Source: a virus (lineage: Duplodnaviria; Heunggongvirae; Uroviricota; Caudoviricetes). Taken from it: 11,425 nt of DNA. Under the pieces are notes generated by a model. The model was given only the letters and a program-made list of their open reading frames with translations, had not been told where the DNA came from and did no database searches. The DNA is taken from IMG/VR virus record IMGVR_UViG_2695420523_000016; one strand, given 5' to 3'. Positions 1 through 11,425 of this stretch are shown in pieces; position 1 is the stretch's first letter; each line of letters begins with the position of its first letter. The translations under genes and the position numbers were made by a program.

Positions 1-71
1 GTGCTTTTGCCGTTACGCACCACCCCGTCAGTAGCTGAACAGGAGGGACAGCTGATAGAAACAGAAGCCAC
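1..71 (-). CDS. insA: IS1 InsA, N-terminal fragment (GTG start at 69-71 on the minus strand; gene continues beyond the window)
   Basis: Hand translation of the reverse complement of 1-71 gives (M)ASVSISCPSCSATDGVVRNGKS, matching the InsA N-terminus from memory. Confidence 0.75.
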   Translation of the reverse strand, partial: MASVSISCPSCSATDGVVRNGKS

Positions 72-126
72 TGGAGCACCTCAAAAACACCATCATACAC
101 TAAATCAGTAAGTTGGCAGCATCACC
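1..126 (-). mobile_element. IS1: IS1 insertion sequence, partial: terminal 126 bp ending in the left inverted repeat (IRL at 104-126); the element body lies beyond the window start
   Basis: Window 1-126 is the reverse complement of the IS1 left end as I recall it; 104-126 atcagtaagttggcagcatcacc is the reverse complement of IRL GGTGATGCTGCCAACTTACTGAT. The minus-strand reading of 1-71 gives the InsA N-terminus. Confidence 0.9.
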
Positions 127-727
127 TAAACCGAAGCTTAAAGAACAATTAATTCAGCTAGCAAATATACTTTCAGATGAAGACAATGAACTATCTGTAA
201 TTGACATGAATGATGATCCTGACGGTTATGGGTTTGATTGTTTGACACTTTGTTTTAGGGACCGTATGACTGGAAACATGCGTCAGGAGACTACTAAGGA
301 ATACACAAAATATAACCATCATTGGCAAAAAGGGGCAGCGTTATCAATTACCTATAGTGCAACGGGTGCAGTCCATATGATTATATTTCCTTCTACTTCT
401 GAAGACTCGCTAGCTAAACATGACTCATTGATTTTGCATCATTCATACAATGTAAAAGATATAACATCTAAAAAATTAGAGAAAGCTGTCAAAAACTTAC
501 TTCATTTCCATCGCGTGACAGGTGTTTTACATAAGGCAACGTTAATAGATGTCTTGATAGTAAAACTCTTGAGACTAAAAATGTATTTCATTCAATATGC
601 AGATAAAGAAAGTAAATTTAAAAGAGTTACTGCTCTGTATATACCCTTATTGAGTCTGCTAATATCACTATCTGCTGCTGTTGCTAGCATACTTGCATTG
701 ATAATAACTATGAAAAATGCAAGTTGA
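113..727 (+). CDS. Hypothetical protein with a C-terminal transmembrane helix; the 5' end is probably disrupted by the IS1 insertion
   Basis: 204-aa ORF in the track. The frame opens only after a TAA at 101-103 inside IS1, and the listed TTG start at 113 lies inside the IS1 IRL. The first in-frame ATG after the IS1 boundary is at 206. C-terminal hydrophobic stretch ALYIPLLSLLISLSAAVASILALII. No family recognised. Confidence 0.35.
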   Translation: MAASPKPKLKEQLIQLANILSDEDNELSVIDMNDDPDGYGFDCLTLCFRDRMTGNMRQETTKEYTKYNHHWQKGAALSITYSATGAVHMIIFPSTSEDSLAKHDSLILHHSYNVKDITSKKLEKAVKNLLHFHRVTGVLHKATLIDVLIVKLLRLKMYFIQYADKESKFKRVTALYIPLLSLLISLSAAVASILALIITMKNAS

Positions 728-800
728 GGTAACGATTACGGTATTGTACAAAAAAAGGTGGGCTTTATAATGGAAATATTCATGTATATGTGAGGCTGGT

Positions 801-1268
801 ATGAGTTTGGTGTCTTTAGCAACAAAATATAAAGATGTTTTAACTGTCGGATTTTCAATGGTATCATTTATTATTGCATGCACATCCTTGTTCTTTTCAG
901 GAAGAACTGCATGGCATGATAGAGCAAGATTAAAAATTAAAGGAAGAGTTGTATATGATGCCGTTTACAACAAAGCTTATAAAATTGAAGTTACAGTTCT
1001 CAATATTGGCAGGCGTGATGCTGTATTGGAAGGCATCCTTTGTCACTATGAGAGCGGTAAAACTAGGCATAGTTATGAAAAAGAAGGCATTGCAATTAAA
1101 GAAAAACAAAGGAAAGTATTCATTGTGGAAAATTTTGACCTGATCATTTCTGATGACGAAGGTGAGGTATATCAGCTAGAAGATATTACTATATTAGATA
1201 TTGAAGGGAAGGAGCATGAAATACCTAACTCTTATAATATAGTTTCCAAATTTATTAAAGATGTATGA
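801..1268 (+). CDS. Hypothetical membrane-anchored protein (one N-terminal TM helix plus a soluble domain of about 120 aa)
   Basis: 155-aa ORF; GAGG at 793-796 about 5 nt upstream of the ATG at 801; N-terminal hydrophobic segment VLTVGFSMVSFIIACTSLFF. No family recognised. Confidence 0.5.
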   Translation: MSLVSLATKYKDVLTVGFSMVSFIIACTSLFFSGRTAWHDRARLKIKGRVVYDAVYNKAYKIEVTVLNIGRRDAVLEGILCHYESGKTRHSYEKEGIAIKEKQRKVFIVENFDLIISDDEGEVYQLEDITILDIEGKEHEIPNSYNIVSKFIKDV

Positions 1269-9193: not shown

Positions 9194-9205
9194 TAAGGAT
9201 ATTAA

Positions 9206-9736
9206 ATGGCATTATTATCAGAAAAGATCTATATGGTCAGCAATCCATATGATCTCACGGTAACGTTACCCGCCAGAACAATACTTGTAGTAAGTTTTAC
9301 TTCATCCGGTCAAAGTACTTCATTCGATAATCTACAATCTGATACTTCAAGGGGATTTACTCTAACGTTAGCAATTGATACAGCAGGTGAAACACTATTC
9401 TGTACTCAAATTACTAATGACAGTGTGAGCACCTTTACCTCCGAAGTAATCAACCCTGTTATGCATACTAATGAATACGCAAAACTGAAAGGGATGATTG
9501 ATGAAATTGATCAGGTTATTGCAGTAAAGATTTCTGGTGGTGCGAATTACAGCATAACAATTAATAATAAAACATTAGTAAGTGAATCTCTTAATTCTCT
9601 TGAATCCATGCGTGCACGTTATGTGAAACGTGCAAACACTTTATGGGCGAAGATGAATGGAGTTAACGTCTCAGGAAACGGAAAACCAATCAAGAGTATT
9701 ACCGTGTTTAAACCTAACACATGGAGTACTCGATAA
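9206..9736 (+). CDS. Hypothetical phage protein in the position of lambda gpW (between terL and portal), but 176 aa and Ser/Thr-rich
   Basis: ORF in the track; AAGGA about 6 nt upstream of the ATG at 9206. No convincing similarity to gpW as I recall it. Confidence 0.45.
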
Positions 9737-11241
9737 TGTTCTGGAAGAAGAAAGAAGAGAAACAACTACAGCCAGTACCAAAGAAACTACGTCAGCGTAA
9801 TGCACAATCCAGTACATTGAAGAAAGATATTCAGGCAGCACGTAATACGTCAGTAATGAATTTTGGGTTCAATACAAATACGGGAAGTAATATTAACTTT
9901 CTGTTGATGAAAGCGTTACCTACATTCCGTGCTTTTAGTCGTGATGCAATTTTGAAAAATCCGATAGGTCGTAAGTATATGAACCTTTCGGTAGATGGGG
10001 TAGTGGGTAGTGATGGGGTATATGTAAAACCCGCCGTAGAACTTGAACAGGATGATGCAGTACTTAACGAGATTAACCAGCAGTTAGAAAAACTGTTTGA
10101 CCGATGGGCATACAATCCAGACCGCTTTAGCATCGATGGAGCATTGAGTTTCGACTTATTCCAGCAGACGGTTGAAAAGATACGCGTTCAGGATGGCGAG
10201 TGCTTCATTAGAATCCATACAAACAACGGACAGATTCAAATTGAAATTATCGATGCTGCACGATTAATACAGCTTAATAATCAGTTCTTGTCTAATGGTA
10301 ACTATATTAGCAACGGTATTGAGTTCGATAAGTACCATCGTTCTGTGAATTATTATTTTTGTACGTTTAATCCTGTTACTTATCAGTTCAATACAAGTGA
10401 TTATGAGATTGTTCCCGCAAATGAAATTTGTCATTACTTCATTGCCGACATACAGGGGCAGGAACGGGGCATTCCCGATATGGTTGCTACCAGTAAATTA
10501 ATGACCGACTTACAGAACTTCACTGAAGCGGCACTAACCGCAAAGCGTGTGAGTGCGTCCAGTATGGCATTTATCACGAACAACAGTGATACCTCTCAAG
10601 TAGATCTCATTGATGACAATCGTGAGGAAGTTACTCCTGTCTATACAGAGTACTTTGAAGCGGGATTCATCGGTGAACTTGGTGAAGGGCAGGATATTAA
10701 AACGATTACGCCAACAAATGGTGTCGATGGGATTGATATTTTCACGAATGAATTGATGAACCAAATCAGTATGGGTCTGAACGTCACTAAGCAAGCCCTA
10801 TTATCTGATACCTCTAATGCATCATTCAGTGCAGCACGACTTACAGAAAAACTCCAGGCTACGACATTCCGTACCAGAACAAATGTACTCATCAGTAAAG
10901 TACTGAAGCCAATTTATGCCGCATGGCTGAAAAATGAAATGCTACATAATAATACATTAAAACTGAGTTTCTCAGATTTTGATGATCTTATTTGTGCTCG
11001 TTTTATCTCTCAGAAACCAATCAGCCTTGATCCAGTGAAGGATATTCAGGCTGAAGTAATGCAACTCGATGCAGGTCTTAAATCCAAAACACAGGTTATC
11101 GCAGAACTTGGCGGTGATCCCGTGAAGGTATTAGCGGAGATCGATAAAGAAAAAGAAGAGGGTAATGACTCCAACTTATTGATAGTGTTTTATGTTCAGA
11201 TAATGCCCGATGACTTTGTCATGCAGCTCCACCGATTTTGA
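9736..11241 (+). pseudogene. Lambda-family portal protein (gpB-like), 3'-truncated by IS1 insertion at 11161; the last 27 codons of the ORF are IS1-derived
   Basis: [28 protein letters not shown] matches the conserved N-terminal motif of lambda-family portals. The likely true start is the ATG at 9736 (GGAG 9 nt upstream) rather than 9721. The reading frame crosses into the IS1 IRR at 11161 and ends at 11241; about 475 native codons remain against roughly 533 for gpB. Confidence 0.7.
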
Positions 11242-11425
11242 GAACGACAGCGACTTCCGTCCCAGCCGTGCCAGGTGCTGCCTCAGATTCAGGTTATGCC
11301 GCTCAATTCGCTGCGTATATCGCTTGCTGATTACGTGCAGCTTTCCCTTCAGGCGGGATTCATACAGCGGCCAGCCATCCGTCATCCATATCACCACGTC
11401 AAAGGGTGACAGCAGGCTCATAAGA
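11161..11425 (-). mobile_element. IS1: IS1 insertion sequence, partial: right inverted repeat (IRR at 11161-11183) plus the insB 3' region; element continues beyond the window end
   Basis: 11161-11183 ggtaatgactccaacttattgat is the IS1 IRR read inward. The minus-strand ORF 11176-11421 matches the InsB C-terminus. Same orientation as the copy at 1-126. Confidence 0.9.
11176..11425 (-). CDS. insB: IS1 InsB, C-terminal fragment (gene continues beyond the window end)
   Basis: Minus-strand translation ...[69 protein letters not shown] matches the InsB C-terminus as recalled. Confidence 0.85.

Follow-up and report, generated by a model that had tools for sequence, protein, structure and literature searches.

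Tn9 (IS1-cat-IS1) is the classic case of a composite transposon formed by two directly oriented copies of the insertion sequence (IS) IS1. In laboratory evolution, IS1 pairs around 7.5-41 kb of chromosome transposed, and the target duplications made by IS1 measure 8-9 bp (PMC12065110). Here we analyse the IMG/VR virus record IMGVR_UViG_2695420523_000016, a stretch of 11,425 bp (the window, by which we mean this whole stretch), in which about 11 kb of DNA, referred to as the cargo, lies between one IS1 end on either side. An earlier note on this DNA had described it as a unit bracketed by two IS1 copies in direct orientation, composite-transposon-like or prone to deletion, and had proposed that the IS1 pair may account for the mobility of a nuclease operon in the cargo. 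Our comparison with related genomes identifies the cargo as a slice of an Escherichia coli prophage, and the IS1 ends are probably the traces of two simple insertions into this prophage, made in place in one clone.

The contig and its IS1 ends

A look-up of the open reading frame (ORF) in which the portal gene is fused to IS1 showed the window to be identical in extent with one complete contig of an E. coli draft assembly (GCA_001284045.1, CYDH01000078.1, 11,425 bp). Because the window is an entire draft contig, its ends are assembly breaks in a multicopy repeat, namely IS1. The arrangement is as follows, with IRL and IRR denoting the left and right terminal inverted repeats of IS1 and L001 to L016 the related loci introduced below.

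1-126, minus strand: IRL-proximal IS1 fragment of 126 nt, identical at 126/126 positions (100%) to an annotated 768-bp IS1 of E. coli G3/10
127-135: 9 bp abutting IRL, TAAACCGAA, the expected left target-site duplication, which occurs once at the empty site of L001
127-11160, plus strand: prophage slice of 11,034 bp with accessory genes and the start of the packaging and head module, aligned without gaps to L001-L016
11152-11160: 9 bp abutting IRR, AAAGAAGAG, the expected right target-site duplication
11161-11425, minus strand: IRR-proximal IS1 fragment of 265 nt, identical at 265/265 positions (100%) to the same G3/10 IS1 copy

Precomputed Pfam annotation places the zinc ribbon of InsA (Zn_ribbon_InsA, PF03811; N-terminus of insA) at 1-71 and the DDE_Tnp_IS1 domain (PF03400; C-terminus of insB) at 11176-11425, both on the minus strand. 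Both transposase frames are thus represented in the window, insA by its N-terminus and insB by its C-terminus only, and the imperfect terminal inverted repeats of IS1 (GGTGATGCTGCCAACTTA... / GGTAATGACTCCAACTTA...) are present at 126 and 11161. The identification of the two fragments is far beyond chance, and the alignment to the G3/10 copy together with the Pfam domains bears out the fragments, the coordinates and the shared minus-strand orientation that the earlier note had given. The boundaries at 126/127 and 11160/11161 are exact, as identity to IS1-free relatives begins and ends there. The two fragments do not overlap and together make up 391 of the 768 nt of IS1, so that neither copy is complete in the window. 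What is seen is a single IRL end and a single IRR end, each directed towards the cargo, from which we infer two IS1 copies. Provided that both copies are complete, the arrangement corresponds in form to a Tn9-type unit and also to a direct repeat prone to deletion. Of the bracketed unit proposed earlier, the architecture (IS1 end, 11 kb, IS1 end, in direct orientation) was confirmed; the function of a composite transposon was not.

The cargo is a slice of a prophage at yeaG

Sixteen comparison loci (L001-L016) from other assemblies were found by exact-protein look-up of two cargo genes. In BLAST alignments the cargo (127-11160) matches all 16 without gaps and with 99.95-99.99% identity. The earlier note had suggested searching related genomes for an empty site; this comparison found both IS1 sites empty in 16/16 loci. 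Since the cargo is collinear with IS1-free prophages and both sites are empty in these relatives, the cargo is not a foreign insert. The closest IS1-free relatives differ from it by one mismatch in 11 kb, and their prophage is continuous as normal.

The surroundings of the cargo in the related loci are those of an integrated tailed prophage: an integrase lies at one end, beside a conserved chromosomal site, and genes for terminase, portal, capsid and tail follow in order in L001-L016. To the left of the cargo are cdgI, yeaH and yeaG, a large serine recombinase of 644 aa (Resolvase/Recombinase) and several small genes. The region covered by the window then contains, in this order, a 227-aa hypothetical gene, accessory genes, an HNH endonuclease gene, a DUF6998 gene, the small terminase, a gpA-type large terminase, a head-tail joining gene and the portal gene. 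The portal gene is followed by a protease-capsid fusion gene (Peptidase_S78-capsid) and then by tail genes. Only the middle part of this serine-recombinase prophage, which has a lambda-like gpA terminase and a gpB portal, is therefore present in the window. The chromosomal flank of the related loci is 100% identical to E. coli, the source records name the proteins E. coli, and the GC content is 38% in the cargo versus 48% in the chromosomal flank.

The prophage is poorly represented among finished sequences. In each of the 5,426 complete E. coli genomes searched, at most 25% of the window is present, and megablast searches with the cargo gave no match in 50,697 phage records or in the deposited plasmids. 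Searches of complete E. coli genomes, phages and plasmids returned only the IS1 ends and partial relatives of 82-92% identity. Among the deposited phage portals, none is more than 32% identical to the portal protein of the prophage, and the best matches include those of Wolbachia WO and Roseobacter phages. A 155-aa cargo gene next to the truncated hypothetical gene at the left end is listed in 349 blocks of the draft-assembly collection.

One assembly named Klebsiella aerogenes by its source (GCA_031063965.1; L003 and L007) carries a 99.95%-identical prophage in the same place, complete with the terminase frameshift allele described below, next to a yeaG/yeaH flank that is only 83.7% identical to that of E. 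coli. At the level of sequence comparison, this case suggests a recent transfer of the whole prophage between genera.

Insertion sites and clonality

At both ends the IS1 copies interrupt prophage genes, and each interruption leaves a diagnostic ORF:

113-727, plus strand: 3' part of the 227-codon hypothetical prophage gene, read as a 204-aa ORF; the intact gene is at L001 9244-9927
9736-11241, plus strand: portal gene (Pfam Phage_portal_2), fused to IS1; L001 has an intact 500-aa gene

In comparison with the empty site, the left IS1 interrupts the 227-codon gene after 83 nt. The 204-aa ORF, which has no Pfam or PHROG match, starts at a TTG within the IRL of IS1 and is hence a marker of the junction on the left. 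On the right, IS1 is inserted 78 nt before the stop codon of the portal gene and 26 nt upstream of the protease-capsid start. In the resulting portal fusion ORF of 501 aa, the last 25 codons are swapped for 26 codons encoded by IS1. On the coordinates of L001, IS1 would follow position 9335 on the left and position 20360 on the right. Both targets are AT-rich, with a GC content of 28% and 32% within 30 nt on either side, and the 9 bp adjoining the two IS1 ends (127-135 and 11152-11160) differ from each other.

These ORFs were used to trace the distribution of the two junctions. The left-junction ORF was found on 11 contigs only, nine of them in the 10-20 kb class, and on all of them the sequence extends leftward beyond the ORF by no more than 112 nt. 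The right-junction fusion ORF was found on four contigs, all of 11.3-11.4 kb and none longer than 11,425 bp. A search with the inner-junction pattern retrieved one further identical contig in IMG/VR (L027) and had no match in metagenomes or genome representatives. All readable IS1-bearing contigs (L018, L021, L022 and L027) are 100% identical to the window. They share a private base at window position 3263, which is A in these contigs and G in 16/16 IS1-free loci. This G>A exchange is synonymous (AAG to AAA), yields a run of ten A and is the only private single-nucleotide polymorphism, so that it serves as a clone marker. The IS1-bracketed contig recurs in at least eight separate assemblies or sequencing runs from several sources. 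Taken at sequence level, about ten clonal assemblies with both junctions point to one clone that inherited both insertions, and not to an element residing in several contexts.

The order of the two insertions may be reflected by a contig of 15,187 bp that carries the left-junction ORF (WP_261289752.1). Because this contig is unable to extend to the left and no fusion ORF occurs on contigs longer than 11,425 bp, it probably has an uninterrupted portal gene and represents an intermediate with the left IS1 only. This indirect evidence from contig metadata suggests a left-only strain and, consequently, sequential insertion.

A perfect tandem repeat, (TGCTGCCT)x14, is found outside the window at L001 9056-9168, approximately 160 nt to the left of the left IS1 site and immediately before the 227-aa gene. 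In other strains, eight short-read contigs start exactly at the edge of this repeat, which could be a phase-variable or contingency repeat. As it breaks most short-read assemblies, a contig covering the outer side of the left IS1 would be expected to comprise only about 200-400 nt.

IS traffic in the prophage family

Further insertions are found in the same family of prophages. In other strains, IS1 resides in the 917-aa tail gene (L015 16454 and L016 15721; window-equivalent about 15659), in the same orientation. Within the IS1-bearing lineage, L021 (ERR9384384) contains another multicopy repeat end at L021 4075-4104, corresponding to window 4176/4177, just after the DUF6998 gene. Up to 49 copies of this repeat occur in one E. 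coli genome; it is probably a terminal repeat of the IS3 family, and we take it to be that of an IS629/IS1203-type element. Two related remnants have been invaded as well: the one in AREA_C483, which shares the yeaG-mipA site, by IS3, IS5 and a group II intron, and the one in G3/10, at ybhA, by IS1 and IS3. Judging from these sequences, repeated independent IS insertions are the norm for this prophage element.

Mobility of the nuclease gene pair

The nuclease operon considered in the earlier note consists of two adjoining genes:

2559-3287, plus strand: HNH endonuclease (Pfam HNH, E=2.4e-6)
3288-4079, plus strand: DUF6998 protein (Pfam DUF6998, E=3.8e-5)

The pair (2559-4079) matches PADLOC models of methyl-directed restriction systems (mREase_IV, E=1e-7; mREase_II, E=3.4e-61, residues 1-154). 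It occurs without IS1 in all 16 prophage loci and in the assembly named Klebsiella aerogenes by its source. With 82.7% identity, and again without IS1, it is also encoded in a small integrase island that adjoins ffs in nine complete E. coli genomes. In this island the pair lies beside a gene for a type III restriction R subunit. The proposal that the IS1 pair explains the mobility of the operon is thus not supported, as the genes are found in the prophage and in the ffs island without IS1. From these occurrences, the prophage and other integrative elements, and not the IS1 pair, would account for the mobility of the HNH/DUF6998 genes.

Two probable insertions in place and alternative explanations

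We consider it probable that the window reflects two simple IS1 insertions, made in place into AT-rich prophage DNA of one clone. IS1 would have inserted twice, in the same orientation, into the prophage of a single clonal sublineage, and a short-read assembler would have halted at both ends of the intervening DNA on meeting the multicopy IS1. Both IS1 copies would be complete, the left one flanked by a 9-bp duplication of TAAACCGAA and the right one by a 9-bp duplication of AAAGAAGAG, and the remaining prophage would still lie outside both copies. Insertion in place predicts that ...GGTATACATTTAAACCGAA is joined to GGTAATGACTCC (IRR) and that GGCAGCATCACC (IRL) is joined to AAAGAAGAGAATATTAACAAGG; a continuous outer prophage would link ...ACATTTAAACCGAA to the IRR of IS1 and the IRL of IS1 to AAAGAAGAGAATATTAAC. 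As a consequence, the portal protein would lack 25 residues and the late operon would be interrupted. Homologous recombination between the two direct repeats of 768 bp could also delete the intervening 11 kb, or the repeats could move this DNA in the manner of Tn9. Both are possible in principle, and no such event was seen.

Several observations weigh against this explanation. The outer junctions of both IS1 copies were never seen. The protein collection contains none of the ORFs predicted for the left outer junction (for duplications of 0-14 bp, with a second start codon and in truncated forms) and none of those predicted for the right outer junction, where duplications of 7, 9 and 10 bp and a 614-aa fusion of IS1 and capsid were considered. 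Gapped DNA patterns of the outer junctions had no match in the genome, metagenome and viral collections. Finally, the left-only state of the 15,187-bp contig is one that we infer from metadata. The negative ORF searches carry little weight, because the left ORFs for duplications of 8-9 bp would be only 31-37 aa long and the capsid gene keeps its own start. The same applies to the DNA patterns, because those collections contain just one contig of the IS1 lineage. A search of IMG/VR with a capsid-start pattern, directed at the right-hand prophage remainder of the source genome, retrieved only unrelated strains (L028 and L029).

The missing outer junctions could also be explained if later recombination of one or both copies with other IS1 copies, or a deletion adjacent to one or both of them, had rearranged or partly removed the outer prophage and left the cargo in the chromosome with IS1 on both sides. 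Further repeat insertions in the same region of the lineage, the related remnants with their IS-linked losses and the failure to find any predicted outer-junction ORF or DNA pattern would be in line with this scenario. However, such negative results are expected anyway, given the short ORFs and the single lineage contig in the collections, and the closest relatives have a normal, continuous prophage. Moreover, the contig taken to represent the left-only state runs approximately 4 kb past the right site. We regard a rearrangement of this kind as unlikely. A still more improbable explanation is that IS1-cargo-IS1 is an active Tn9-like composite transposon that has transposed out of the prophage into another site, which would also explain the mobility of the nuclease pair. 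Direct IS1 pairs are capable of this, and the orientation of the ends fits. Yet each end of the cargo falls within a prophage gene, in collinearity with prophages that lack IS1. The nuclease pair also spreads in the absence of IS1, and no plasmid or phage matched the cargo. Moreover, the unit is known only as one identical contig from a clonal set; in scans of viral, genome-representative and metagenome collections, the junction patterns were absent except from this contig. A composite transposon would be recognized by foreign cargo or by the presence of the unit in at least two genomic contexts, and neither was found. We strongly doubt that the unit is active or amplifiable, resides outside the prophage and moves a defence pair independently of the phage while the packaging module is disabled.

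Alternatively, the cargo might loop through a single IS1, either as a circle of 11.8 kb or in a tandem amplification. Both contig ends stop inside IS1, the two fragments are complementary, do not overlap and have a loop-compatible orientation, and the draft contig alone fits two copies as well as a single copy on a loop. However, TAAACCGAA and AAAGAAGAG differ, which excludes a simple insertion of one IS1 into a small circle, and the relatives have the two sites at a distance of 11 kb within a linear prophage that extends beyond either site. Among the cargo ORFs scanned against Pfam and PHROGs, none was recognized as a gene for replication or partition, and there was no plasmid match; neither of the marks of a small circular replicon, identical flanks of 8-9 bp and a replication function, was thus found. 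The recurrence of the contig in at least eight separate assemblies or runs from several sources is a further point against a loop, which we judge to be very improbable indeed.

Packaging genes and other features of the cargo

Upstream of the fused portal gene, the cargo contains the beginning of the packaging and head module:

6789-7370, plus strand: terminase small subunit (PHROG 57, E=3e-19)
7390-9193, plus strand: gpA-type terminase large subunit (Pfam GpA_ATPase and GpA_nuclease), split into 7390-7809 and 7778-9193
9206-9736, plus strand: head-tail joining protein (PHROG 5774, E=3.6e-11)

The large terminase gene is split by one extra T at about 7804-7806 (GTG TTA CTT TGA CGA), which changes the frame in comparison with the G3/10 homologue. 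The extra T is absent from the 96%-identical L029, which has CTT GAC at this place, and the more distant L023 and L024 are also unbroken at the site. All near-identical relatives share the extra-T allele. It creates CUU UGA C, the +1 frameshift heptamer of prfB, with GGUG UUA before it, and a +1 slip at this site would restore the Walker-B-like motif VLLDEVS. We considered a conserved programmed frameshift and rejected it, as L029 does without the additional T. The terminase may be non-functional, or leaky frameshifting may supply it. On the opposite strand, a 236-aa ORF (1616-2326, minus strand) has a predicted N-terminal membrane segment and a weak PADLOC match to Csm6 (E=2.7e-4) that is probably due to chance.

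Comparison with known systems

The window represents an ordinary product of draft assembly together with ordinary IS1 insertions into a prophage. Insertion of IS1 into AT-rich prophage DNA and draft contigs that end in an IS are both routine in E. coli and have little biological weight. The nuclease operon is carried by a serine-recombinase prophage, with which it apparently crosses even between genera, and by an integrase island of unrelated kind. For this reason, the IS1 ends are no argument for regarding it as the cargo of a transposon. Where a sequence window has complementary IS fragments at both ends, it should first be checked whether this window is a whole contig.

Like Tn9, the window has an IS1 end in the same orientation on each side of its cargo, and the outer ends (the IRR of the left copy and the IRL of the right copy) would form a valid pair for the transposase. 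Tn9, however, has a selectable gene as its cargo and occurs in many contexts, with duplications flanking the outer ends, whereas the cargo of the window is a prophage slice apparently in its native position, IS1 is present as partial ends and no second context is known. The IS1 pairs from laboratory evolution (PMC12065110) resemble the proposed origin of the window in one respect, as two simple insertions a few kb apart gave rise to a potential composite transposon and a substrate for deletion. In that study, later transposition to other loci was demonstrated by long reads, whereas only the paired insertions are supported here. The remnants in AREA_C483 (yeaG-mipA) and G3/10 (ybhA) belong to the same prophage family, with 82-92% DNA identity over parts of the cargo; they have the same kind of integrase (in AREA_C483 also the same site) and have received IS1, IS3 and IS5 insertions. 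Unlike these remnants, which have already lost structural genes, the lineage of the window has kept its cargo intact between the IS1 ends.

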